In this document: positions 2,751 through 64,000 of the stretch, piece after piece
Numbering within the stretch: position 1 is the stretch's first letter
How the letters are laid out: every line of letters starts with the position of its first letter
Assembly: GCA_045807765.1 (NCBI GenBank)
Contig: JBJMGU010000011.1
Location: forward strand, 25,398 to 89,397
DNA length: 64,000 nucleotides
Direction: 5' to 3'
Source: Blastocatellia bacterium
Lineage (GTDB): Bacteria; Acidobacteriota; Blastocatellia; UBA7656
The notes under the pieces: model-generated
The model's input: the letters and a program-made list of their open reading frames with translations, nothing else
Told to the model about the DNA's origin: nothing
The model's database searches: none
Program-made: the position numbers and the translations under genes

Positions 2751-5054
2751 ATGACGAAGGCAGTATTGCTGCGCGGCGGCCTGGCCGTCGCCCTTTTTTT
2801 GTCGCTGTTATTGCCGCCGGTGGCGTTTCGCGCCACGGCGGAGAGCGATGCGATTCAACTCGCCGTTGACACGGCGAATTTCAATCAAGACGGGCTGCTG
2901 GTGCTGTTCGGCAGCACCCGGCGACAGGGCGAGATCGGCTTACCGGTCGCTGCCGGCGACGTCACCGGCGATGGCCGCGCCGATGTGCTGTTTGGCGGCA
3001 TGTATGGCAGCAGCGACCCGTTCACCAATAACGGCACCGTCAACGTCTACCTGAGCGATGGCCGTGACAGCGGCTTCATCAATCAAGCCGACCACCCGGC
3101 CAATCTTTTTCGCATCCTCGGCAGCGGCTCAGGTGACCTGCTCGGCACCTCTTCTTCAATCAATGCGGACGTCAACCACGACGGCCTGCGCGACATCCTG
3201 ACCTGCGCGGCGTTGCAGGATGGGCCGAATGGTTTTAATGCCGGCGCCGCGTATGTCGTCTATGGCAAGCCGAATTTCAGCGGCGACATCAACCTTGCCT
3301 CATCGCCGGCGGGCGTTACTGCCATCTACGGCCCGCAGGCCGAGGGGCGCATGGGCATCTGGTGTGACGAAGGCGATGTGGACGGCGACGGCTTTGCCGA
3401 CATCGTGATCGGCTCGGATCAGATCAACACCGCCGCGGGCCATCACGTCGGCGGCGCGTATATCGTTTTCGGCGCGGCCAACCTGCCTGCTGAAATTAAT
3501 CTCGCCTCACCGCCCGCCGGTGTGCGGACGGCGCGCATCGTTGGCGTCCGCGAAGAAGATCACTGGGGCGGCGCCCTGCAAGTCGGCGACGTCAACAATG
3601 ACGGTATCAGCGACATCATCATCGGCGCTTCGATAGACCGTGACTCCGGCTCGTACGTCACCGTGCAAGACCAGGTGAGCGGGCATAACTTTTTTGCCGC
3701 AGGCAACAATGGCAGCCGACCGCTGTGCGGCGAAGTCTATGTCATCTACGGCCAGCGCAACTGGCCGGCTACGACCGACCTCGGCGCGCCGCCGGCGAAC
3801 GCCACGCACGTCATCGGCGCGCACGCCCATGACTTCCTCGGCTCGCAGGTGCATTTCGGCGACCTCAATGGCGATGGTCGCACAGACCTGGTGCTGGGAG
3901 CGTTGCTGGCGCTGGCGCCGGACGACCGCGGCCAGACCGGCGCGGTCTATGTCATCTATGGCTCGGCCAGCTTGCCGGGCGCAACGATTGATCTGCTGAA
4001 CCCGGATGCGTCGGGCCAGCGCGTCGCGACCGTCTACGGCGTCCATGCGCTCGACTGCGCCGGCGACTCTGTGCGCAGCTTTGACATCAACAAAGACGGA
4101 TTGTCTGACCTGTTCATCGGTAGCCCGGAGCGCACCTTTGAGCTAAACGGCGAAGACCGCGACGACGCAGGCATGACCGAACTCATCTTTGGGCGGCGCG
4201 ACTTTCTGCCGTCGGTCATCAAGCTCTATGATCCGCCGGCGGGCCTGCCGATCTATCAACTGGCCGGCGCGCACGGCGAAGACCAGGGCCTAGAGGGCGG
4301 CGACGAGTTCTCTTATCGCCTGACCGGCGGTGACGTCGACGGCGACGGTTATGTGGATTACATCGCCAACGCCATGCACGGCGACGGCTTGAACAACAGC
4401 GTGCTCAACGCCGGCAACGTTTACATCTTCAGCGGCAAGAAACTGTCGGCGCGGCTCGGTCAACTGGCGCAGGACCCAAGCCCGGCGCCGCAGCTTAGCG
4501 GCGCCACGCTGACCTTGAATGGCCAGCCGGTGCAGCAAGCGAACGCCGGACAGACAGGATTGCGGATCACCATCAGCGGCACCAACCTGCGCAGCGATAC
4601 CGAGATCACGATCAATGGCACAGTCGCCGTGTCGCACCTGCAAGCCGGGACGCCGGCGACGATCACCGTCGAGCTGGACGAAAACCCGAGCATCAGAAAC
4701 AGCGCCGGGCAGCTCGTCGTCAGCGCCCGCAACACGGCGCCGCCGGCTTCCGGCGCTTCCAATCAAGTGATAGCCGGCACGCTCGTTGGGCCGCACATCG
4801 ATTCAGTAAAGATCAAGAAGAAAGGCTCGGGAGCGCTGGTGCTGAAAATCTTCGGCTCGAACTTCCCGGCCAACGTCACCGTCGAGGTGCGCGGCGACAA
4901 CTTCAGCTCGAACATCGCCGTGTTTGGCGAAACCGATTTCATTTCGCTGAAGATCCCCGCCGCCGTGGCGCCGTCATCGGGTACTGTGCTGCGCATCATT
5001 GTGCGCACCCCCGCCGGCATCGCCTCGAACGAAGTGACGAAGACGGTTCCTTAA
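2751..5054 (+). CDS. Secreted FG-GAP/integrin-alpha-like beta-propeller repeat protein with C-terminal IPT/TIG-like domains
   Basis: Signal peptide followed by many repeats of the GDVxGDGxxDxxxG type (FG-GAP). The C-terminal region (ITISGTNL...TINGT; KIFGSNF) is IPT/TIG-like. 767 aa. Confidence 0.75.
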   Translation: MTKAVLLRGGLAVALFLSLLLPPVAFRATAESDAIQLAVDTANFNQDGLLVLFGSTRRQGEIGLPVAAGDVTGDGRADVLFGGMYGSSDPFTNNGTVNVYLSDGRDSGFINQADHPANLFRILGSGSGDLLGTSSSINADVNHDGLRDILTCAALQDGPNGFNAGAAYVVYGKPNFSGDINLASSPAGVTAIYGPQAEGRMGIWCDEGDVDGDGFADIVIGSDQINTAAGHHVGGAYIVFGAANLPAEINLASPPAGVRTARIVGVREEDHWGGALQVGDVNNDGISDIIIGASIDRDSGSYVTVQDQVSGHNFFAAGNNGSRPLCGEVYVIYGQRNWPATTDLGAPPANATHVIGAHAHDFLGSQVHFGDLNGDGRTDLVLGALLALAPDDRGQTGAVYVIYGSASLPGATIDLLNPDASGQRVATVYGVHALDCAGDSVRSFDINKDGLSDLFIGSPERTFELNGEDRDDAGMTELIFGRRDFLPSVIKLYDPPAGLPIYQLAGAHGEDQGLEGGDEFSYRLTGGDVDGDGYVDYIANAMHGDGLNNSVLNAGNVYIFSGKKLSARLGQLAQDPSPAPQLSGATLTLNGQPVQQANAGQTGLRITISGTNLRSDTEITINGTVAVSHLQAGTPATITVELDENPSIRNSAGQLVVSARNTAPPASGASNQVIAGTLVGPHIDSVKIKKKGSGALVLKIFGSNFPANVTVEVRGDNFSSNIAVFGETDFISLKIPAAVAPSSGTVLRIIVRTPAGIASNEVTKTVP

Positions 5055-5167
5055 ATGATGAACGATGAATGATGGATGATGAATTAAGAGAGGAAACGGC
5101 AGGGGATTGTCTATAGATAATCCGGCTTCCGCTTCCTCTTCCGTTCATCATTCATCATTCATCATTA
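5055..5167. repeat. Hairpin element, family A, copy A1 (more divergent)
   Basis: Left arm aatgatgaacgatgaatgatggatgatgaattaag begins 1 nt after the TAA stop of the FG-GAP gene. Right arm is ccgttcatcattcatcattcatcatt. Confidence 0.75.
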
Positions 5168-6318: not shown

Positions 6319-7296
6319 ATGATGCATAAGCGGCAATTGATCCTACTGATGGTGCTGGCACTGCTGGCGCCTGTGGCCCAGGCTGACACCATTCACCTGA
6401 AAAACGGCAGTGTGCTCAAGGGCAAGGTGGCGAGCTTTGCCGACGATCAGTTCATCGTCATGCTCGACACCGGCTCTGGACGTTATCTGAGCCGGGCGAT
6501 GGTCTATGTCGGCGACGTGGCGCGCATCGAGTTCGAGGGTGCGCCCGCGGGAAGCGCCGAAGGTGCCATGCGGGACGCGTCGCCGGTGCGCCCGAGCGAA
6601 ACCAACAGCACGCGCCCGAGCGACGCCGTGCCCGTCCGCGACACACCGACCGAAGCCCGCGAAACGGCGCGCCCGACGGTCTTGCCGGACCTGCCGCGCA
6701 ACACGCAGCCAGAGCGGCCTACGCGCAACCCAGAAACCACCGAGGCCCAACCGACCGCCCAGCCCGATGTGACGCCTGCTGAAAAGCCTGCCGAGAGCAA
6801 GTCCACGAAACCGTTCGACCGCACTACGGATGCCGATAAGCCCGCGGCCAACCCGCCCGCCGACCAGCCGCCCGCCGAAACCGAGCGGCCCCCGGCGCGC
6901 AAGCTGACCGGCCAGGTGCGCTCGGCAACGATTGACGTGATCGGCAAGCGCGACTGGACGAGCACCGGCCTGATCGTCAAGCGCGGCGACCGCATCCGCA
7001 TTAACGCCAGTGGCGCGGTGACGCTCGACCCGGCAAGCGGACGCACGACGGGGCCGGAAGGCACCACCGATATCACAGACGGCAAGAAGCTGATGGCCGA
7101 ACAGCCTACGGGCGCGCTGATCGGTGTCATCGGCGCCGATAACGACGATTTCATCTTTATCGGCAAATCGTCGGAGTTCACGGCGACGCGCGACGGCCTG
7201 CTCTTCCTGTCGGTGAACGAAGGCAACCTCGGCGACAACGTCGGCTCTTTCAAAGCGCTCATCGAAGTGCAGTCGCAGAGCAAAGGTAGGCAGTAG
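6319..7296 (+). CDS. Secreted protein: N-terminal small domain, Pro/Thr/Glu-rich linker, C-terminal LecA/PA-IL-like lectin beta-sandwich
   Basis: Signal peptide (LILLMVLALLAPVAQA) and a low-complexity PT-rich linker of about 120 aa. The C-terminal region (GDRIRINASG...GALIGVIGADND...NLGDNVGSFKALI) matches the spacing of conserved residues in the PA-IL (LecA) fold. The stop codon TAG lies inside the repeat element at 7286. Confidence 0.6.
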   Translation: MMHKRQLILLMVLALLAPVAQADTIHLKNGSVLKGKVASFADDQFIVMLDTGSGRYLSRAMVYVGDVARIEFEGAPAGSAEGAMRDASPVRPSETNSTRPSDAVPVRDTPTEARETARPTVLPDLPRNTQPERPTRNPETTEAQPTAQPDVTPAEKPAESKSTKPFDRTTDADKPAANPPADQPPAETERPPARKLTGQVRSATIDVIGKRDWTSTGLIVKRGDRIRINASGAVTLDPASGRTTGPEGTTDITDGKKLMAEQPTGALIGVIGADNDDFIFIGKSSEFTATRDGLLFLSVNEGNLGDNVGSFKALIEVQSQSKGRQ

Positions 7297-7392
7297 GCGG
7301 TAGGCAGTTCGTAATGCACACCTGGATGGCGGCGACGCGGCGGAACGATTAAGGATCGGAAAACTGCCTACCGCCTACCGCCTACTGCCTAC
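7286..7392. repeat. Hairpin element, family B (tandem GTAGGCAG / CTGCCTAC arms), copy B1
   Basis: Left arm gtaggcagtaggcggtaggcag (7286-7308) and right arm ctgcctaccgcctaccgcctactgcctac (7365-7392) are inverted tandem 7-8-mers. The left arm supplies the last codons and the stop of the upstream gene. Confidence 0.8.
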
Positions 7393-7789
7393 TTCTCTGT
7401 AACACCTATTTTGCTTGACTTGCTCCATCCCTTAAAGTAGCCTGTGCTTCTCGCATTCCCTTTCTCAGATCTTTGCTGCGCCACGGGCCGGATGAGTTGA
7501 ATAGTTGCGCCGGTTGCGGCACGACAAACGGCAAGCTTCGGCTGCCGCTTTGAAGAAGGGGATTGTGGGACTGCTCATTATCAGGTTGTTTCGATTTCAC
7601 TCATGCTCGCACGACCGCAACGGCGTTGCCGTGCGCCAGGAGTGTCGGATCGGCGAGAGGCGGTCGCGCTGCTTCCATTCGTATGGCCCGCAACCTCGCG
7701 CGTCTCTCCCCGCGCCATCCGCCGGGTGGAGCGCGCACGCTTCACGTTGGAACCAGTGAGAAACATTTACATCACAGAGAGGCAGGAAT

Positions 7790-13815: not shown

Positions 13816-13823
13816 AAAAGCCC

Positions 13824-13933
13824 GACGCGGCGACGCGGGGACGCGGGGACGCGGCGAGGGAAAGAGACAGAGCTAACCGCTTGTCTTCCTTTCCCTGCGT
13901 CCCCGCGTCCCCGCGTCACTCTTCCCGCGTCAC
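13824..13933. repeat. Hairpin element, family C (tandem GACGCGGG / CCCGCGTC arms)
   Basis: gacgcggcgacgcggggacgcggggacgcggcgagggaaag ... ctttccctgcgtccccgcgtccccgcgtcac. It follows the VIT-vWA stop directly and probably acts as a terminator before gltX. Confidence 0.8.
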
Positions 13934-29189: not shown

Positions 29190-29197
29190 GTAAATCA

Positions 29198-29432
29198 GTA
29201 GCAGTAGGCAGTAGGCAGGCGATTTCTAAGCTCCGTTAGGAGCGTAATGTTTATAGTCGTCGCGGCGCTTAAACAATCAAGCTCCGTAGGAGCGGAATGT
29301 CAACATCGCGCTCCTACGGAGCTTGATCTTTATTGGAATGTCTTGACTATAAACATGGCGTCCCTACGGGACTAGGTAACTGCCTACTGCCTACTGCCTA
29401 CTGCGTACTGCCTGCTGCCTACTGCCTACTAC
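29198..29432. repeat. Hairpin element, family B, copy B2 with nested inner palindromes (gctccgtaggagcg motif three times)
   Basis: Outer arms are gtagcagtaggcagtaggcag (29198-29218) and ctgcctactgcctactgcctactgcgtactgcctgctgcctactgcctactacc (29380-29432). There is an inner perfect palindrome gatcaagctccgtaggagcg...cgctcctacggagcttgatc. The right arm overlaps the stop of the convergent gene at 29429. Confidence 0.8.
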
Positions 29433-31165
29433 CTCGTCACATTGCCGCAATCCATTTCGGTGCCGTTGTCGGTGCTGCTCCAGTGCAGGCGATTCCAGCC
29501 GCCATTGTTCTGCTCGGAGAAAGTCATTCCATAAAAGTAACAGGTGCCGTCGTTGCGTTTGACGGCGACCGCGCCGTTGATGGCGCGGCGCGTGATGATG
29601 CCGCTGATCGGATGACGGTAGAGCGTCCACTCGCGCTCGGTGATGACGGCGCGCACAGGTACGCCGGGCTTGCCCTGGTCGGTCAACATGCCGCGCGTCG
29701 CCTCGACCATGGCGCGCTCAAGAACCGGGTCGCTCTTGACCGCCCTGGGCAAAAAGACATTCTTCAATGCGATCTTGTGATAAGCGATGGCGCGCTCAGC
29801 CATCTTCTCTTGGCCGTTCGAGCAATCAATCTCGAACTCGCCTTCGGCAAGGTCGTGGCGGGAACTCATATAGATGGCGCTGACGCGGAAGCCGAGCGTG
29901 TGGCTGCGCGGTGAGCATTCGGCGAGCAGCCTGGCGTAACGTGACGAGCCTTCGCATTCTTTCGCCGTCTCAAGTGCCGGCAGCACCTCAATCGGCATGA
30001 ACGTCCACTGCTCCATTGGCTTAGTCATTGGATAATTGAAGCTGGTCATCTCGTTGCCGTCGAGGAAGACGGTCATCTGCATTTCGGTATCACCGGAATG
30101 CGCGCCGTCGGCCATCTCGGCAATCGTCCCTTTGAAGTAGGCCGTCGCATAAACTGTATCGGCGAGCGAAAACGTTTTGGCGACTGCCGACACCTCTTCC
30201 TGGCCGGCGACCAGCGGCTTGCGGCTGTAGACGACCTTCCCGGTGTTCTGCTTGTGGAATGCGCCGGCGTAGACTTTGCTGCCGAGATCGCGCTCGACCG
30301 CGCCGACAATAGCTTCGGCATCCTTGCGAATCCTGAGCGCCTGCGATTGATCGGGGAACGACAACAGCACGCCGTTGGCAAGCATCAGGGCGATGTCTGC
30401 GGCCTCGGTCGCTGCGCCGACTGCGCCGGCACCCTTCTTCTTTTCAACGTAGGCTTTCTCGATGGTGGCGTTGATCTCGCCGATCAAAAAGCTACGCACG
30501 AACTCGTCGTACTCTTTCGGGAATTTCGTCAGCAGTTGCTCGACGTGGTCGCTGATCTCGTTGTCGGTGCGCAGGCCGGGATGTTTGGCGAGCGCGTCCT
30601 TGACCTTCTTGATGGTCTCGCCATAGCCCAGCTCTTTGCACGATTCAAAATAGCGCTCGGCGTCGCCCTTCGTCTGTGTGTAGATGCCTTTCCAATAGGT
30701 CTGCGGAATCAGGTGCTCTGACGCGTAGGCCATTTTGCTGATGAAGGCTTTGATCTCGTCGAGCGAGTCGTCGTCGGCCTTGCGATCATTGGTCCGGCTG
30801 TCATTCGCCTTGCGGTCATTGACTGCGCTGTCATTCTCGTCTTCGCTCAACAACCGGCTGTAACCGGCGATCTCATGCTCATATGCCGCGGTCGAATAAT
30901 CGCGGTAGAGACTTTTGATGCCACCGATCAGCTCTTTGGCGTACTTCGCCGCGGCGCGTGCGCCTTCGATGTCGGGCGGATTCTCTTTTAGCTCTTTCCG
31001 CAGATCACTCATAGCCTGTTCGAGGCGGCGCACTTCGATGCGGCTGTCGGTTGAAATGCTTGGCTTGCGCTTTGGCACCGATACTTCGATCTTGATCTGT
31101 GTGGCGGCGAGCGGCTCTAAGGCGAACAGCACCGTCAGCGTCCAGATAGCAAATAAGCGTGTCAT
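29429..31165 (-). CDS. Hypothetical secreted protein (Lys/Glu-rich, lower GC than neighbours)
   Basis: The ORF spans 29429..31180. The probable start is MTRLFAIWTLTVLFALEPLAA, a signal peptide. I recognise no domain. Codon usage is AT-richer than the surrounding genes. Confidence 0.55.
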   Translation of the reverse strand: MTRLFAIWTLTVLFALEPLAATQIKIEVSVPKRKPSISTDSRIEVRRLEQAMSDLRKELKENPPDIEGARAAAKYAKELIGGIKSLYRDYSTAAYEHEIAGYSRLLSEDENDSAVNDRKANDSRTNDRKADDDSLDEIKAFISKMAYASEHLIPQTYWKGIYTQTKGDAERYFESCKELGYGETIKKVKDALAKHPGLRTDNEISDHVEQLLTKFPKEYDEFVRSFLIGEINATIEKAYVEKKKGAGAVGAATEAADIALMLANGVLLSFPDQSQALRIRKDAEAIVGAVERDLGSKVYAGAFHKQNTGKVVYSRKPLVAGQEEVSAVAKTFSLADTVYATAYFKGTIAEMADGAHSGDTEMQMTVFLDGNEMTSFNYPMTKPMEQWTFMPIEVLPALETAKECEGSSRYARLLAECSPRSHTLGFRVSAIYMSSRHDLAEGEFEIDCSNGQEKMAERAIAYHKIALKNVFLPRAVKSDPVLERAMVEATRGMLTDQGKPGVPVRAVITEREWTLYRHPISGIITRRAINGAVAVKRNDGTCYFYGMTFSEQNNGGWNRLHWSSTDNGTEMDCGNVTR

Positions 31166-37539: not shown

Positions 37540-37611
37540 GCCACGAAGGCACGAAGCCACAAAGCCACACAATCTTTTTTGTGTTTCTTGGTGTCTTCGT
37601 GGCTTGGTGGC
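37540..37611. repeat. Hairpin element, family E (tandem GCCACGAAG/CACAAAG units), copy E1
   Basis: gccacgaaggcacgaagccacaaagccacacaa-tctttt-ttgtgtttcttggtgtcttcgtggcttggtggc. It lies between convergent genes and is a probable bidirectional terminator. Confidence 0.75.
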
Positions 37612-45907: not shown

Positions 45908-45919
45908 AAAATGATGAAT

Positions 45920-46984
45920 AGACCTCGTGCGCAGTAAGAATGACGGAGGCCCCAGCCTCACTAGTGGAGCATCAATCACTCAGGCTGCTGCTTGCATCAG
46001 TCGCTCCTGCGTCCGTAGATTCGCCAACCCGCACACCGTGCGGCAGACTTGATCGTATGCTTTTTCTCGATGCCGATACTTGCTGCCCATCACTTGATAC
46101 TTCTTCACTCGCGAGATCGCATGCTCAACGACGATTCGCCGCTTCGCCAGTCGCCGATTCCGCCGCTTCTGGCTGGCCGTCAATGGATGATGCTTACTTG
46201 GCTTCTTCGGCAATTCCACGGCCCGTTGCGGATAATGTTTGGCCAAGCCCATATATCCCTTGTCGGCAGCAATCTGCCAGTCGTCGGGCAAGGCGGCCTC
46301 CACCCCGGAGCGGTGAAACAAACTCAGGTCGTGGGTCCGCCCACCGACGCTCTTCGACACATGGCCAATCCAGCCGTTGGCCAAGACCGTCATCTGCACC
46401 TTGCGCGTATGCCGCTTCTTCTTGCCCGAATAGCGATGCTTGCGCTTGGTCTTGTTTTGCGGGCGGTTTATGGGCTGTTCGGTGGCATCAACAATGACCT
46501 CGCGCAACTCTGGATATTGCTTGAAAAGCTCGTCCAGGCTGCCAATCTTACGGCGGCGCTGGGCGGCGGGCGGCTTAGGGGCCAAGTGTCGGCGGGGCTG
46601 GGCTGGCACGGGCAACTGTTGTTCAAGAAGCGGCAAGAGCGTGCGCAGGTTGCGGGAGATGTTACTGGCATCAAGGCCAAAGAGATAGCCGAGCAGATCG
46701 TTGGTCAAGTAAAGACGCAAAAAGACCAGGGTGAGCAGGGTGCGGTCAGGCAGCGACAAGCGGAAGCCGCAGCCGCCACCGACTTGGCGCTGACGGTCTG
46801 GGCGGGCCAGGCGCTGGGCATTGAACTGTGGGTAGGCCTTGTGCATCTGGCTAAGCAAGCGATCAAACTGCGAGATGGACAGGCCCGCAAAGCGGAGAAA
46901 GTGCGGCGGACGTTTACGGAGCTTTTCGACGTTGAGCATGATTTTGTCAGTATGCAATAAGTTCGCTTATTGCGCACGAGGTCT
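45920..46984 (-). mobile_element. IS5-family (IS4/IS5 superfamily) insertion sequence, about 1065 bp, 19/20-bp terminal inverted repeats (TAGACCTCGTGCGCAGTAAG / CTTATTGCGCACGAGGTCTA), 3-bp AAT target duplication
   Basis: The TIRs and flanking AAT direct repeats were read directly. A single transposase ORF spans the element. The inner right end has the palindrome GCAATAAG-ttcg-CTTATTGC. Confidence 0.8.
45980..46957 (-). CDS. IS5-family DDE transposase
   Basis: 325 aa. The C-terminal signature RRNRRLAKRRIVVEHAISRVKKY (Y-R-E-K region) is typical of IS5/IS4 DDE transposases. The protein is basic and includes GKKKRHTRK. Confidence 0.8.
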   Translation of the reverse strand: MHTDKIMLNVEKLRKRPPHFLRFAGLSISQFDRLLSQMHKAYPQFNAQRLARPDRQRQVGGGCGFRLSLPDRTLLTLVFLRLYLTNDLLGYLFGLDASNISRNLRTLLPLLEQQLPVPAQPRRHLAPKPPAAQRRRKIGSLDELFKQYPELREVIVDATEQPINRPQNKTKRKHRYSGKKKRHTRKVQMTVLANGWIGHVSKSVGGRTHDLSLFHRSGVEAALPDDWQIAADKGYMGLAKHYPQRAVELPKKPSKHHPLTASQKRRNRRLAKRRIVVEHAISRVKKYQVMGSKYRHREKAYDQVCRTVCGLANLRTQERLMQAAA

Positions 46985-46985
46985 A

Positions 46986-47078
46986 ATGATGAATGATGAA
47001 TGATGAACTGCCGGAGCTAGCGCCTATTGCGGTGCCACCCGTCTCCTTAATTCATCATTCATCATTTCTCATTCATCG
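46986..47078. repeat. Hairpin element, family A (tandem ATGATGA / TCATCAT arms), copy A2; the outermost part of the left arm is displaced to 45901-45919 by the IS insertion
   Basis: aatgatgaatgatgaatgatgaactgccggagctagcgcc...ttaattcatcattcatcatttctcattcatcg. The loop and arm are near-identical, in reverse orientation, to copy A3 at about 62826-62924. Confidence 0.85.
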
Positions 47079-58389: not shown

Positions 58390-59784
58390 TCAATAAGGGC
58401 CGTTGAAGGTGCCGCGGCGCAGGAATTGGCCGGCACCCTGACGGCCCCGATACTCGCCGTCTTCGATCACCACCTGACCACGCGACAAGACGGTGCGTGT
58501 GACGCCGCGCACCGTCATTCCTTCATAACAACTGTAGTCAACGTTCATGTGGTGCGTGGCCGCAGAGATCGTCTGCTCCTGTTCGGGATCGAAGATAACG
58601 ATGTCGGCGTCACTGCCTACGGCAATCGTGCCTTTGCGCGGGAACAGGCCGAAGAGCTTGGCGGCGGCGGTCGAAGTCATCTCGACGAAGCGGTTGACGC
58701 TGATCCGGCGGCCCACGACGCCGCCATTGTAGACCAGGCTCATGCGATGCTCGACGCCGGGGCCGCCGTTGGGAATCTTGGTGAAGTCGTCGAGGCCGAG
58801 CGTCTTCTGTTCCTTGAAACAGAACGGGCAGTGATCGGTCGAGATGACTTGCAGGTCATTGCCCGCCAGTCCCTGCCAGAGCTTGTCCTGATTCCACTTC
58901 TCGCGGAGCGGCGGCGTCATCACGTACTTCGCGCCCTCGAATCCTTCCTGCTCATAATGCATGTAATCGAGGAAGAGGTACTGCGGGCAGGTTTCGGCGA
59001 ACGCCGGAAGCCCGAGGTCGCGCGCCTCGCGCACTTCCTGGAGCGCGTCATAACAACTGAGATGGACGATGTAGACAGGGGCCGCGGCCATCTCGGCGAT
59101 GGCGATGGCCCGATGCACGCCCTCGGCTTCGGCTTTGGTCGGGCGGGTCAACGCATGGTACTTGGGCGCGGTGTGGCCTTCGGCGAGCGCATGGCGGATG
59201 ATCTCATTAATGACGATGCCGTTCTCGGCGTGCATGCAGATCAGGCCGCCGCTACTGCCTGCGACTTTCATGGCGCGGAAGATGGTCGCATCATCTACAA
59301 GAAAGACGCCGGGATAGGCCATAAACATTTTGAAGCTCGTCACGCCTTCGCGGATGAGCTGCTTCATCTCAGGAATCTTCTCGTCGGGTAGATCCGTGGT
59401 GATCAGGTGAAAGCCGTAATCGACGACCGGCTTGCCTTCGGCCTTCTGATGCCAGTTGTCGACGGCTTGAACGAGCGACTCGCCTTTGTACTGCACGGCG
59501 AAATCGATGATCGTCGTCGTCCCGCCGTGGGCGGCGGCCCGCGTGCCTGTGTGGAAGTCGTCCGACGAAGAGGTGCCGCCGAAAGGCAACTCCATGTGAG
59601 TATGCGGATCGATGCCGCCGGGGATGACCAGCATGCCTGTGGCATCAATCGTCTTGTCGACTTCGCCGACGATCTGGGCAAGGTTCTTGCCGATCACGGT
59701 GATGGTTTCGTCTTCGACAAGCACGTCGGCCAGATAATCATCGACCGCCGTAACGATGCGTCCGTTTTCAATCAAAAGTCTCAT
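58390..59784 (-). CDS. Dihydropyrimidinase / D-hydantoinase (cyclic amidohydrolase)
   Basis: Metal-binding signature GGIDPHTHMELPF, carboxylated-Lys region VTSFKMFMAY and a full-length amidohydrolase fold. The start is at MRLLIENGRIV; the ORF track extends to 59847. Confidence 0.85.
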   Translation of the reverse strand: MRLLIENGRIVTAVDDYLADVLVEDETITVIGKNLAQIVGEVDKTIDATGMLVIPGGIDPHTHMELPFGGTSSSDDFHTGTRAAAHGGTTTIIDFAVQYKGESLVQAVDNWHQKAEGKPVVDYGFHLITTDLPDEKIPEMKQLIREGVTSFKMFMAYPGVFLVDDATIFRAMKVAGSSGGLICMHAENGIVINEIIRHALAEGHTAPKYHALTRPTKAEAEGVHRAIAIAEMAAAPVYIVHLSCYDALQEVREARDLGLPAFAETCPQYLFLDYMHYEQEGFEGAKYVMTPPLREKWNQDKLWQGLAGNDLQVISTDHCPFCFKEQKTLGLDDFTKIPNGGPGVEHRMSLVYNGGVVGRRISVNRFVEMTSTAAAKLFGLFPRKGTIAVGSDADIVIFDPEQEQTISAATHHMNVDYSCYEGMTVRGVTRTVLSRGQVVIEDGEYRGRQGAGQFLRRGTFNGPY

Positions 59785-59806
59785 GGTCTGCCCTCGCCGA
59801 GAATTT

Positions 59807-60268
59807 GCCACAAAGGCACCAAGGCACAAAGATTCACAAAGATTCACATGATGAATCTTCTGATGCCGCTCTTAATGAAAGTCACTCTGAAGTTGATAAG
59901 AAAACCCAACCGTTTACCGGTGAGTTTAAGGTGACTGAGTACTTGCGCTTCCCAAACTGGATTGACTTGTTCAACGGCCTTCAATTCGCAGATAACCAGA
60001 TCATCTACTAGGACATCTAGCCGAAGCCCTTCGTTGAAAACGATCCCATCGTAAACAATCGGTATATCAACTTGTCTTTTGTATGGCAGTCCGCGCTTGC
60101 TCAATTCATGACAAAAGCATATTTCGTAAACCTTTTCCAACAAGCCAGGGTCTAGCTGCTTATGGACTGTATAAGCCGCCCCCACAATCGCTTTGCCGAC
60201 GTCTTCTTCTTGATGGGATAAAGGTATAAATCCCATAGTGATTCTTTGTGCCTTTGTGTCTTTGTGGC
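59807..60268. repeat. Hairpin element, family E, copy E2, whose about 390-bp loop is exactly the GxxExxY gene
   Basis: Left arm gccacaaaggcaccaaggcacaaagattcacaaagattcaca (59807-59848). Right arm tgattctttgtgcctttgtgtctttgtggc (60239-60268) is its imperfect reverse complement. The interior is AT-richer than the flanks. Confidence 0.75.
59844..60236 (-). CDS. GxxExxY protein (PD-(D/E)XK nuclease-like small protein family)
   Basis: 130 aa: MGFIPLSHQEEDVGKAIVGAAYTVHKQLDPGLLEKVYEICFCHELSKRGLPYKRQVDIPIVYDGIVFNEGLRLDVLVDDLVICELKAV... It contains the eponymous G-x-x-E-x-x-Y (GLLEKVY) and a D...(D/E)xK-like core. The ORF track extends the N-terminus to 60341 through the repeat arm. Confidence 0.7.
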   Translation of the reverse strand: MGFIPLSHQEEDVGKAIVGAAYTVHKQLDPGLLEKVYEICFCHELSKRGLPYKRQVDIPIVYDGIVFNEGLRLDVLVDDLVICELKAVEQVNPVWEAQVLSHLKLTGKRLGFLINFRVTFIKSGIRRFIM

Positions 60269-60276
60269 AAGCTGTT

Positions 60277-61587
60277 TTACAGCGCCGCGAACGCGCCGTC
60301 GAGCGCCGTGACCAGCTCGTCAATATCCGCTTTGCTCGCAATCAACGGCGGCCCCAGGCGGATGACGTTGCCGTAAAGGCCGCCCTTGCCAATCAGCACG
60401 CCGCGCCGCCGCGTTTCTTCAAAGACACGCACTACCGATTCGGCGTCAGGCTGTTTGGTCGTGCGGTCTTTGACGCATTCAATCGCCTGCATCAAGCCCA
60501 TGCCGCGCACATCGCCAATCACCTGATACTTGTCTTTCAGCTCTTCGAGCCGTGCGCGCAAGTAGCCGCCGACTTCGCGGGCGTTGCGCGGCAGGTCGTT
60601 CTCTTCGATGACGCGGATCGTCGCCAGCGCCGCCGCCGCTGTCACAGGGTTGCCGCCAAAAGTCGAAAACGTCAGCGACGGGTACTTGTCGGCGATCTCC
60701 GACAGCGCCGTCGTGCAGCCGATGGGCGAGCCGTTCGCCATGCCTTTGGCAAAGGTCATCACTTCGGGCTCGACTTCCCAATGCTCGATGCCGCACCAGT
60801 GATCGCCTGTGCGTCCCCAGCCGGTCTGCACTTCGTCGCAGATGTAGATGCCGCCGTAACGGCGAACGATTTCAGTGACCACTTTGAAATAATCTTTCGG
60901 CGGCGTGATGAAGCCGCCGACTCCCATGATCGGCTCGGCGATGAAGGCGGCGATCTCTCCCGTTGTCGAAGTCTGAATCAGCTCTTCGACATCGCGGGCG
61001 CATTCCAGGGCGCACGATTCGGGATTGAGGTTGAACGGGCAGCGATAACAATAAGGCGCATGGGCATGGACGATGCCGGGGACCAGCGACGGCCCGTGCT
61101 TCCACGTCGAATGCCCGGTCGCCGTCATGTTCATCACCGAGCGCCCGTGATAGGCGTGGCGCAGGGCGATGATTTCGGTGCGCCCGGTGTAGAGCCGCGC
61201 CAGCACCATCGCGGTCTCGTCGGCTTCGGTGCCGCTGCTGGTGAAGAAGCTCTTCTGCAAGCGGCCCGGCGTAATCTCGGCCACTTTCGCGGCCAGATCG
61301 GCTTGCGGGCGGTTGATGTAGAGCGTCGAGGTATGAGCGATGGCGCCGGCCTGACGGCTGATGGCTTCGACGACTTCCGGGCGCGCGTGGCCGACCGATG
61401 TCGTCAACACGCCGCCAAAGCAGTCGAGGTAGCGGTTGCCTTCGGTATCCCAGACCTGCATGCCTTCGCCGCGTTCGAGCGCGATTGGCTCTTTATAATA
61501 AGTCGCAGCGCAGGGCCAGATGTACTCTTTCTGTTTGGCAACGAGGTCGTCGGTTGCAGGTTGCGTCGTCGGATTTTGTGCGGCCAT
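60277..61587 (-). CDS. Class-III PLP-dependent aminotransferase (beta-alanine/omega-amino acid--pyruvate transaminase-like, AGXT2-like)
   Basis: 436 aa with the PLP-lysine region TFAKGMANGSP and conserved DEVQTGWGRTG. Confidence 0.85.
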   Translation of the reverse strand: MAAQNPTTQPATDDLVAKQKEYIWPCAATYYKEPIALERGEGMQVWDTEGNRYLDCFGGVLTTSVGHARPEVVEAISRQAGAIAHTSTLYINRPQADLAAKVAEITPGRLQKSFFTSSGTEADETAMVLARLYTGRTEIIALRHAYHGRSVMNMTATGHSTWKHGPSLVPGIVHAHAPYCYRCPFNLNPESCALECARDVEELIQTSTTGEIAAFIAEPIMGVGGFITPPKDYFKVVTEIVRRYGGIYICDEVQTGWGRTGDHWCGIEHWEVEPEVMTFAKGMANGSPIGCTTALSEIADKYPSLTFSTFGGNPVTAAAALATIRVIEENDLPRNAREVGGYLRARLEELKDKYQVIGDVRGMGLMQAIECVKDRTTKQPDAESVVRVFEETRRRGVLIGKGGLYGNVIRLGPPLIASKADIDELVTALDGAFAAL

Positions 61588-62824: not shown

Positions 62825-62918
<94 letters not shown>

Positions 62919-62924
<6 letters not shown>

Positions 62925-64000
62925 GTAGTTGATGTAAACGGTCTTGGCCTCTGTGTAGAAATCCAGCACCGCGTCGCCGACTTCGCGCCCGCCGTAACCG
63001 CTCTCTTTGATGCCGCCGAACGGCGCGTGCGAATAGCCGCCGACGCCTGGGCGGTTGACATGCACCATGCCCGATTCGATGCGCTCGGCGAACTGGAAGA
63101 CGCGCCCGACGTCGCGCGTGAAGATCGAAGCCGTCAGCCCATAGCGCACCGCGTTGGCAATCCGCAGCGCTTCGTCCAGGTCGGCGGCGCGGATCACCGC
63201 CAGCACCGGCCCGAAGATTTCTTCGCGGGCAATTTCCATGTCGGGCTGCGCTTCGATAACCGTCGGCGGAAAGAAGAAGCCGCGCTCCAGGCCATCGCCC
63301 TGCATCGCTTCACCGCCTGTGCAGAAGCGCGCCTGTTCGCGGCGGCCCGATTCGATGTAGCGCGCCACGCCCGCCATCGCCCGCTCGTCCACCAGCGGCC
63401 CCATCTCGATGCCCGTTTGCATGCCTGGCCCTGTGCGAAACGCGGCGGCGCGCGCGACCAGCCGCTCAAGGAACTGGTCATAAATATCACCGACGACGAT
63501 GGCGCGGCTGGTCGCCGTGCAGCGCTGGCCGGTTGCGCCAAAAGCGCCCGCCGCCGCTCCCGCCACCGCCATGTCGAGGTCGGCGTCTTCGAGGATGATC
63601 TGCGGGTTCTTGCCGCCCAGCTCCAATTGCAATTTTAATAAGCGGTCGCTCGCGGCTCGCGCGATCAGCTTGCCGACTTTGGTCGAGCCGGTAAACGACA
63701 CACCGCGTACCCTTTCGTTGGTAATCAATTCTTCGCCCGGCTCGGCATCGCCATGCACCAGATTGACGACGCCTGCCGGCAGGCCGACTTCTTCGAGGCC
63801 GCGCACCAGCATTGCCGCGGTCATCGGCGTCAGCGGCGACGGCTTCAACACGCAGGTATTGCCGGCAACCAGCGCCGGTGCCAGCTTCCACACAGGGATG
63901 GCCACAGGGAAATTCCACGGGCTGATCAAGCCGACGACGCCGAGCGGCTGAGTGTTCGTGTAGCAAAAGATACTGTCGTCTTCCGAAGGAAGGACGCGCC
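62919..64000 (-). CDS. NAD(P)-dependent aldehyde dehydrogenase (C-terminal portion; N-terminus beyond the window end), possibly malonate/methylmalonate-semialdehyde dehydrogenase
   Basis: ALDH motifs ELGGKNP, the catalytic Cys region GQRCTATSR, and EEIFGPV. The ORF-track start at 63929 is an internal TTG and the frame is open to the window edge. Confidence 0.85.

Follow-up and report, generated by a model that had tools for sequence, protein, structure and literature searches.

A 64,000-nucleotide (nt) stretch of the genome of a Blastocatellia bacterium (contig JBJMGU010000011.1), here called the window, carries between two genes of pyrimidine catabolism an element in which a small GxxExxY gene, coding for a putative nuclease of the PD-(D/E)XK type, fills the space between two inverted arrays of short tandem repeats (the arms). 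We favor, with about even confidence, the view that this insert represents a copy of a small selfish element, one that still moves or once did and that is typical of the whole GxxExxY family (TIGR04256/PF13366). The selfish unit would measure about 0.46 kb and would combine a nuclease gene with inverted repeats made of three or four tandem units (core CACNAAG here; CRCNRAG generally, with a period of 8 to 10 nt), a description to which we give an equal chance of being right or wrong. Elements of this kind share one anatomy and one orientation, are conserved across phyla, differ in presence between close relatives, have gene-less counterparts in which two arms form a doublet, and show no selection for pairing between their arms.

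The arms travel with the GxxExxY gene

A scan of one genome per species for genes close to that of the window yielded 80 loci (the close subfamily; individual loci are designated by L and a number). These span Blastocatellia, Calditrichota, Desulfobacterota, Bacteroidota, Planctomycetota, Ignavibacteriota, Nitrospinota, Nitrospirota, Chloroflexota, KSB1, Dadabacteria, and other groups, for a total of more than 10 phyla. At these genes the motif GCCAC-N-AAG-N-CAC-N-AAG-N-CAC-N-AAG stands in forward orientation before the ATG and reverse-complemented after the stop codon. The 25-nt motif contains five free positions (N) and was scored on its 20 specified bases, with a good arm defined as 17/20 or better. 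This level was reached in the upstream flank of 69 of the 80 elements and in the downstream flank of 71; random 130-nt segments from the same loci scored 13/20 or less, save for two segments that held additional arms. The forward arm most commonly ended 7 nt before the ATG, with 9 nt the next most frequent distance, and the reverse arm most commonly started 1 nt after the stop codon. Such gaps leave no space for a promoter or a terminator between gene and arm. One candidate for a promoter of the element's own, a weak sigma-70-like match within the upstream arm of the window element (TTGCCA-18-AAGAAT, 9/12; minus strand, 60241-60270), was rejected; its hexamers are not conserved at other loci.

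In the window, the 25-nt motif GCCACNAAGNCACNAAGNCACNAAG is matched perfectly at exactly four places, two in the gene-carrying element and two in a gene-less doublet designated E1. By chance, none would be expected there, as judged from 100 dinucleotide-preserving shuffles in which up to 3 mismatches were tolerated.

The initial annotation, made from the sequence of the window, had suggested that a hairpin family of the host ("family E") captured the gene. That origin is contradicted by the close subfamily: because the same 25-nt motif accompanies these genes across more than 10 phyla, the arms are part of the gene's own unit. The annotation had also stated that the association of gene and hairpin would be coincidental if other GxxExxY genes in the genome lacked flanking hairpin arms and relatives had the gene at the orthologous locus without arms. 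The opposite was found, since arms are present at most relatives and also in divergent subfamilies (see below). An ordinary horizontally acquired gene that happens to lie beside unrelated host repeats would be compatible with the single window locus and with nothing further. Roughly 70 of 80 independent loci, distributed over more than 10 phyla, show this architecture, as does a second subfamily, and zero chance matches are expected in the window. Coincidence is refuted, and we assign it a negligible probability.

Divergent GxxExxY genes carry arrays of related units

Divergent members of the family, 30 to 50% identical to the window protein, were taken from plasmid and chromid records. They too lie between co-directional housekeeping genes, in the orders radA-X-FAD (flavin adenine dinucleotide) protein in Bacteroides finegoldii, ade-X-mannose-1-phosphate guanylyltransferase in Bernardetia, and fabD-X-fabG in Sphingomonas. 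Inverted arrays are built from the unit CACAGAGG in Bacteroides and Bernardetia, from CGCAGAGGA in Gemmatirosa, and from ACAAATCG in Prevotella. The Sphingomonas unit is CGCGAAG, and the reverse arm there is concealed in an annotated C-terminal extension of the protein. Treponema and Fusobacteria have one ACACGGATT box only.

A second subfamily was assembled from metagenome loci, as the best 80 around one seed, with a three-sequence alignment as the query; 76 loci were scored. At least two CRCNRAG units were found in forward orientation upstream of the gene in 46 of the 76 and in reverse orientation downstream in 45 of the 76, compared with 3 of 238 random segments. The period of the units was most often 9 nt, then 10 nt, then 8 nt, and the dominant units were CACAGAG, CACGAAG, CGCAAAG, CGCAGAG, CACGGAG, and CACAAAG. 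The dominant unit was alike on both sides of the gene in 27 of 34 cases, against a permutation expectation of 6.1 and a maximum of 14 in 5,000 trials.

Anatomy of the window element and its neighbors

The coordinates of the element, of its two host genes, and of doublet E1 are given in Table 1. The two arms of the element (59805-59837 and 60238-60270) are 33 nt each, 91% complementary, and 400 nt apart, and each is built as GC followed by (CACNAAGN)x3, that is, as 8-nt tandem units. The upstream inverted repeat (TTGCCAC...AATCAC) extends to within one base of the start codon, and the 25-nt motif contained in it stops 7 nt before the ATG. The downstream arm holds two more units inside, in the form of a 10-nt repeat CACAAAGATT present in 2.4 copies (59825-59848) that overlaps the stop codon. 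A longer gene call of 165 aa at this position results from extension of the open reading frame (ORF) into the arm.

TABLE 1 Features of the GxxExxY element, its flanking genes, and the gene-less doublet in the window
Feature	Position	Strand	Description
Whole element, 466 bp	59805..60270	-	Forward arm, promoterless GxxExxY ORF, and reverse arm; longest inverted repeat in the 64-kb window
5' upstream arm	60244..60268	-	GCCACAAAGACACAAAGGCACAAAG; three CACNAAGN units; perfect 25-nt motif match
GxxExxY/PDDEXK_3 ORF, 130 aa	59844..60236	-	ATG 60236-60234, TGA 59846-59844; profile matches
3' downstream arm	59807..59831	+	GCCACAAAGGCACCAAGGCACAAAG; perfect motif match on the opposite strand; tandem repeats
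Class-III aminotransferase (upstream host gene)	60277..61587	-	PF00202, 3.6e-101
Dihydropyrimidinase (downstream host gene)	58390..59784	-	TIGR02033, 629.8 bits (cut-off 393)
Gene-less doublet E1	37540..37611	.	Forward arm 37540-37572, reverse arm 37579-37611, 6-nt center TCTTTT

Arms, ORF, and profile matches bear out the original description of a GxxExxY gene that fills the interior of an inverted-arm element between pyrimidine-catabolism genes. The aminotransferase, GxxExxY, and dihydropyrimidinase genes are all on the minus strand. The element is tightly fitted between its neighbors: the aminotransferase stop codon (60277-60279) lies 6 nt from one arm and the dihydropyrimidinase ATG 20 nt from the other, and the operon spacer that holds the element would otherwise measure about 26 nt. 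No terminator-like site was found in the interval 59500-60600, and the aminotransferase gene is the presumed source of read-through transcription for the ORF. The insert is AT-richer than the flanking genes, as had been stated at the outset, with a GC content of 43.5% in the element interior, 60.1% in the dihydropyrimidinase gene, and 62.2% in the aminotransferase gene.

Doublet E1, flanked by two minus-strand genes, had been described as having the same arms around a 6-nt loop. The motif and the loop agree with this description; the variable bases differ, and E1 has four units per arm.

The arm motif is conserved as sequence and not as a hairpin

Two good arms were present in 53 gene-carrying elements. 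When the arms of each were compared at the five N positions, they were identical in 81 of 265 cells (30.6%), and permutation gave 30.6 ± 2.5%, i.e., no covariation. The 20 fixed positions showed no compensatory changes in any element and were simply constant.

Gene-less arms were sought by running the arm as a DNA pattern against a collection of viral contigs ("viral" being the label of the collection). This search returned 76 stretches with 224 arms, with no GxxExxY gene in the stretches retrieved. Most of these arms form doublets, each consisting of a forward arm, a center, and a reverse arm. The centers are mostly 13 to 24 nt long, with a mode of 17 nt, and have an A+T content of 79%, compared with 48% for the contigs. 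Doublets are intergenic in 62 of 79 cases, and their neighbors are co-directional genes in 40 of 53 and convergent genes in 4 of 53. The N positions of doublets were identical in 44 of 360 cells (12%), against 31 ± 2.5% expected, and all 2,000 permutations gave a higher value. With mirrored duplicates removed, core N positions matched 15 times (48.8 expected) and spacer N positions 23 times (48.7 expected). The same tendency was seen in an independent set of genome loci plus E1 (5/55 identical), in E1 taken singly (1/5 variable positions complementary), and in arm pairs of the opposite arrangement (6/50 identical). The mean folding energy of the doublets, computed with DNA parameters, was -13.9 kcal/mol, compared with -16.9 for random N bases and -29.4 for a perfect palindrome.

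Closely spaced arms keep the motif and yet avoid a good palindrome. We take this as evidence for recognition by sequence, most probably through a protein, and not by a hairpin; foldable palindromes appear to be selected against. The hairpin, after which the initial annotation had named these elements, is not what is conserved, with N positions matching at chance in gene-carrying elements and depleted for matches in doublets. Assembly bias is an unlikely source of the anti-complementarity, since the inverted arms of gene-carrying elements show no such depletion. A terminator function of the doublets was also considered and rejected: they have no T-run, their neighbors are co-directional, and their stems are interrupted every fourth base. 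They resemble neither intrinsic terminators nor mRNA stabilizers of the repetitive extragenic palindromic (REP) type, in which a stable GC-rich stem precedes a T-run at operon ends.

These results bear on the idea of an RNA-level cassette, similar to a 23S rRNA intervening sequence or a Correia element, whose paired arms would be processed (for example, by RNase III) or would hide the ribosome-binding site, so that the insert is tolerated and its expression limited. The window element speaks for this idea through its highly complementary arms and through pairing of these arms in the predicted fold of its 496-nt transcript (z = -4.9). Further, the elements would be transcribed together with the host operons, and the ribosome-binding site lies within the last forward unit. 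The lack of covariation, the conserved positions that are fixed in sequence, and the weakly folding doublets all speak against it, as does the absence of a matching Rfam family (nothing below E = 6 in an Rfam search). We consider an RNA cassette quite improbable.

Palindromic elements nest in one another's centers. Doublet centers at L125 (957-1100 and 4846-4990), L121, and L131 hold other repeat hairpins, which are GAACCNT heptamer pairs or GC-rich hairpins. At L062 (~560-630), a GC-rich hairpin lies between the forward arm and the ATG.

The element is inserted in operons and differs between close relatives

The orientation of neighboring genes was taken from crude stop-to-stop ORF calls. In the close subfamily, the upstream neighbor was co-directional with the GxxExxY gene in 71 of 78 cases and the downstream neighbor in 65 of 74. 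Both neighbors ran with the gene in 56 cases and both against it in 1; the corresponding figures for the second subfamily were 28 and 3. The upstream gene typically ends 40 to 60 nt before the ATG, just beyond the arm. The functions of the host genes beside the elements are unrelated.

Two relatives, L086 and L089, have the most similar flanking genes. In L086 (dihydropyrimidinase 90% and aminotransferase 94% identical), the orthologous junction is a bare 19-nt spacer without arms, and in L089 it is a bare 17-nt spacer, also without arms. The second suggestion of the initial annotation, that the gene inserts into pre-existing hairpins, thus finds no support at the window locus, where the spacers of the closest relatives are armless. 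In L087 (1825-2500; dihydropyrimidinase 89% identical), the same junction is taken up by an unrelated ORF for a hydrophobic protein of 136 aa that has no Pfam match. The aminotransferase-dihydropyrimidinase junction seems prone to insertions. Doublet E1 likewise is absent at the orthologous site in L251 and L252 (neighboring protein 95% identical). Another palindrome, TGTGGCGCAAGCTGTTAGATTGCGC...GCGCAATCTAACAGCTTGCGCCACA, occupies that spot (L251, ~2800-2880; L252, ~2495-2570), and hence one intergenic spot hosts different palindromic elements depending on the strain.

Paired copies were also found. L004 and L005, from one Desulfobacterales metagenome-assembled genome (MAG), are ~96% identical exactly between the terminal inverted repeats and have unrelated flanks; that they belong to the same genome rests on MAG binning, as it does for the other pairs. 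L034 and L062, from another MAG, have in common a disabling internal duplication and a premature stop codon, from which it follows that a defective copy was duplicated. At least four assemblies contain two loci each (L004/L005, L015/L019, L034/L062, and L052/L063). The inverted repeat of the elements usually stops at GCCAC...GTGGC, and a longer terminal repeat, GTAACNGTTCAG, occurs in one Desulfobacterales group only.

Arm sequences are recombinationally active, as is evident from the amplification at L039, the arrays at L017, and the nesting at L125 and L121. At L039 (2160-2431), seven tandem 41-nt copies of the forward arm plus leader precede one GxxExxY gene. At L017 (2900-3380), three forward and four reverse arms form nested gene-less units of ~80 nt downstream of a GxxExxY gene. 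At L090 (2408-2500) and L091 (2402-2500), the reverse arm is followed, after a 13-nt gap, by a second forward arm that ends just before the dihydropyrimidinase ATG, and at the Prevotella locus L169 (~1580-1700) a duplicated leader of ~70 nt that includes a repeat array stands ahead of the next gene. Because arms or arrays front host genes at these three loci, host genes can use the arm as a leader.

One alternative is homing into doublets, the natural targets in this view: the nuclease would bind both arms and cut the AT-rich center, and repair from a gene-carrying copy via arm homology would install the gene, gene-carrying copies being immune with their arms 400 bp apart. Homing would account for a gene placed exactly in the center with no ends of its own (spacers of 7 nt and 1 nt), for the tight size range and AT-richness of doublet centers, for the other repeat hairpins nested in such centers (L017 included), as if these were break-prone, and for the arms being the sole sequence common to copies. 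It is hard to reconcile with L086 and L089, whose empty alleles are armless so that the whole unit differs, although this is the one checkable locus. Furthermore, copies vary freely at the N positions of their arms, which leaves homology of only ~20 of 25 nt, and the spread of the doublets themselves is left unexplained. We judge homing to be unlikely.

The GxxExxY protein and its family

All functional statements on the GxxExxY protein in this work are drawn from sequence. The window protein matches TIGR04256 (GxxExxY) with 134.6 bits (cut-off 35; 1.9e-39) over model positions 3-116 of 116 and PF13366 (PDDEXK_3) with 127.7 bits (cut-off 22; 3.7e-37) over positions 2-117 of 117, and these are its only matches among Pfam and NCBIfam models. 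Its name-giving motif is G31-x-x-E34-x-x-Y37, and the putative catalytic residues are D74, E84, and K86. These three residues and E34 are invariant across 30 close homologues, whose alignment contains 49 invariant residues in all. The equivalent D, E, and K and the GxxExxY residues are also invariant in 8 members of 36 to 55% identity, the most divergent compared. By its sequence, the window protein thus has the catalytic signature of the PD-(D/E)XK superfamily, D...(D/E)-x-K with a preceding helix glutamate, and is a candidate nuclease.

Relatives of the window protein number in the thousands, and the best 120, at 68 to 99% identity, are assigned to WOR-3, Desulfobacterales, Cloacimonetes, Marinimicrobia, and others. 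In total, the family comprises 16,340 clusters at 50% identity and is spread over most bacterial phyla. An exact look-up of the window protein matched no record, searches of the PDB by sequence and by profile returned noise only, PADLOC and PHROGs models gave no family at E <= 0.1, and tblastn against 50,697 phage records gave no match. A search of the window and the 80 loci with the family profile found no further divergent GxxExxY paralogues.

Several proteins of 240 to 295 aa (P0242, P0246, P0248, and others) contain two GxxExxY domains and are genuine tandem fusions or else gene calls that run through two neighboring elements. At Bacteroidota loci (L013, L021, L031, L064, L080, and others), the arm starts with ATGCCACAAAG... 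and the expected protein start has no ATG nearby. Possibly the forward arm is translated there into additional N-terminal residues (MPQ.H..TK...); the true start could also be at another position. The start codons of Bacteroidota GxxExxY genes are probably mis-set in annotations.

The genes are long-term residents under purifying selection

Relatives at 66 to 79% protein identity (best segment) are found in Blastocatellia, Desulfobacterales, Bacteroidota, Planctomycetota, WOR-3, Ignavibacteria, Nitrospinota, Chloroflexota, and others. The gene is AT-richer than its flanks at 76 of 80 loci, by a mean of 7 points, and the GC content at third codon positions (GC3) spans 12 to 64% and correlates with host GC (r = 0.84). 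Because GC3 tracks host GC, the identity between phyla does not stem from recent transfer. The genes are long-term residents under strong purifying selection, with the protein and 20 motif bases held while synonymous sites drift.

The GxxExxY gene precedes dihydropyrimidinase in four Blastocatellia lineages (the window, L001, L090, and L091) and is absent there in L086-L089. Syntenic copies are 76 to 85% identical and non-syntenic Blastocatellia copies 79 to 84%. The syntenic copies are no more alike than the non-syntenic ones, a pattern compatible both with ancestral presence followed by precise losses and with repeated insertion.

Conservation of this degree raises the question of whether the gene is a domesticated, immobile host factor, a nuclease or DNA-binding protein acting, e.g., in repair, genome maintenance, or defense, with the arrays serving as operator and translation signals and the doublets as regulon-like or chromosome-structuring sites. 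The 49 invariant residues, held despite host-adjusted GC3, would be expected of such a gene, as would the position kept upstream of dihydropyrimidinase, the forward arms directly ahead of host genes at L090, L091, and the Prevotella locus, and the location of doublets in intergenic regions between co-directional genes. The distribution of the element argues otherwise: occupancy is patchy among close relatives; near-identical copies, pseudogenes included, lie at unrelated sites; the gene is AT-richer than its flanks at nearly all loci; the flanking genes have unrelated functions; and arms are nested and tandemly amplified. No PADLOC match points to a defense role. A domesticated host gene is an alternative that we take seriously but hold to be improbable.

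Other repeats in the window

The window contains three further families of inverted tandem-repeat pairs, built from other units. AATGATG/TTCATCA pairs occur at 5054-5166, 46985-47077, and 62826-62933 and share the loop ...CTGCCGGAGCTAGCGCCTATTGC...; GTAGGCA/ACTGCCT pairs occur at 7286-7393 and 29196-29434; and one CGACGCGG/TCCCCGCG pair occurs at 13823-13917. None of these fits CRCNRAG, and none encloses a gene in the window. At the KSB1 locus L020, an AATGATG pair brackets a CACNAAG-armed element. An insertion sequence at 45919-46985 sits in the left AATGATG arm of the 46985-47077 pair; it has the terminal repeats AGACCTCGTGCGCAGTAAG and CTTATTGCGCACGAGGTCT and a minus-strand ORF for a transposase-like protein of 325 aa (45980-46957).

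A working model for the GxxExxY element

In the selfish-element reading, the gene would be expressed by read-through from the host operon, and the last forward unit (AAGG/AAGGAG) would often act as the ribosome-binding site; a Shine-Dalgarno-like 4-mer is present in 25 of 60 elements. The nuclease would bind the repeat units of its own ends sequence specifically and would cut at or near these ends or in the AT-rich center of a doublet. Through host replication or repair, copies of the unit, and of doublets in trans, might then arise at new intergenic sites. The doublets would be non-autonomous partners of the gene-carrying element.

Several points weigh against this model. A hydrolytic PD-(D/E)XK nuclease alone is incapable of strand transfer, and the copying step is hypothetical. 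So is the link in trans between doublets and gene, as the doublet-rich contigs have no GxxExxY gene in the stretches retrieved. No target-site duplication was found in 41 elements with definable ends, and no recognizable target motif was found at insertion sites. The paired loci depend on binning, as stated above for L004/L005. The dihydropyrimidinase synteny, together with the extreme conservation, could reflect a retained host function. Unit spacing of 8 to 12 nt, varying even within one arm, is awkward for cooperative binding of double-stranded DNA. Unit type tracks protein identity only weakly (61% within and 56% between types; p = 0.0004), and co-inheritance could explain part of the gene-arm correlation. 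Moreover, proteins as close as 82 to 89% identity may carry different unit types, which implies rapid, concerted change of the approximately six units of an element. Finally, the literature passages found to name GxxExxY or PF13366 contain nothing on function or on flanking repeats.

A more far-reaching proposal, which we put forward tentatively and with less than even confidence, is that the GxxExxY gene and the doublets represent an unrecognized class of intragenomic replicator in bacteria. A 130-aa nuclease between inverted arrays of its own recognition units would ride host operons and would mobilize itself and the doublets by a nuclease-initiated, repair-dependent route unlike described transposase chemistry. 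Anti-complementary positions would keep the ends readable and prevent palindrome toxicity, and other tandem-heptamer inverted pairs, possibly including the short tandemly repeated repetitive (STRR)-like repeats of cyanobacteria, could be the ends of sister systems. There is a real chance that the chemistry of the system is new.

The results suggest that a large protein family of unknown function is carried as cargo by a compact selfish DNA element not described before. If this is true, thousands of puzzling small ORFs and many intergenic "tandem heptamer hairpins" share one explanation, and a second enzyme superfamily, beside the HUH transposases of the REPIN/RAYT systems (see below), sustains long-lived repeat populations in bacteria. 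A 25-nt motif kept from Acidobacteriota to Bacteroidota and a 130-aa protein would then form a clean protein-DNA recognition system and a possible basis for a programmable binder or cutter. The depleted complementarity at free positions would be direct evidence, at the population level, of selection against foldable palindromes. There are also practical consequences for annotation. Automatic annotation places family members in the middle of housekeeping operons, e.g., between fabD and fabG or after radA, and operon reconstruction should count these units as insertions. Gene callers run ORFs into the arms, as in the 165-aa call in the window and the C-terminal extension in Sphingomonas.

Comparison with known systems

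ORF-bearing intervening sequences of 23S rRNA, of the Leptospira/Coxiella type, occupy helices of the rRNA and have paired stems that RNase III cleaves. They resemble the element described here in having a small ORF in the loop of terminal inverted repeats and in being co-transcribed and tolerated within an essential transcription unit of the host. They differ in location and in ORF family, the GxxExxY elements occupying operon spacers, and no covariation indicative of pairing was found in the latter.

Miniature inverted-repeat transposable elements and insertion sequences with terminal inverted repeats (e.g., Correia elements) are likewise short and intergenic, exist in autonomous and gene-less forms, and are often co-transcribed. 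In contrast to these, the GxxExxY elements have no target-site duplication and no DDE transposase, their ends are tandem units and not a single unique repeat, and the autonomous unit measures 0.46 kb.

Free-standing homing endonuclease genes have one conserved target, usually in a gene, intron, or intein, and are without conserved inverted ends. The likeness consists of a small nuclease gene that forms a discrete AT-rich insert, present or absent, and a PD-(D/E)XK precedent exists in the homing endonuclease I-Ssp6803I. GxxExxY genes, however, occupy many unrelated operon junctions and have conserved ends; empty alleles exist.

Integron cassettes share with these elements a promoterless ORF, expression from outside, fixed orientation, and an imperfect inverted repeat (attC) whose mismatches matter. 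The attC site is one-sided, is recognized by its shape by the integron integrase, and belongs to arrays at attI, whereas the arms here are two-sided. Where a locus had gene calls or annotations, we noted no integrase or cassette array in them, the neighbors not having been searched for one.

The omega repressor of inc18 plasmids is a ribbon-helix-helix protein that reads contiguous 7-bp units, direct or inverted, at a strict spacing of 7 bp. Its operators provide a precedent for a small protein that reads tandem heptad arrays. They are a regulatory site of a repressor, and not the boundary of an element, and their strict spacing has no counterpart in the arms.

By analogy, the GxxExxY system may be regarded as an intragenomic replicator composed of repeat and enzyme, in logic closest to REPINs (REP doublets) and their RAYTs (REP-associated tyrosine transposases; PMC3116915, PMC3337134). 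RAYTs are HUH/Y1 transposases related to IS200/IS605 and are typically single-copy, and REPs are lineage-specific imperfect palindromes that are recognized as folded single-stranded DNA. The two systems are alike in that one small gene lies between inverted short repeats while the same repeat is dispersed as gene-less intergenic doublets; both persist for long periods within lineages, and in both, gene and repeat types go together. The enzyme, however, is PD-(D/E)XK nuclease-like here and not an HUH/Y1 transposase, and the arms are tandem non-palindromic 7-nt cores with free spacers and not self-folding repeats, with doublets that avoid complementarity. At least four assemblies have two loci each, in contrast to the typically single-copy RAYTs, and the gene is co-oriented inside operons. 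Finally, the termini of the GxxExxY elements are conserved across phyla, whereas REPs are specific to their lineages.

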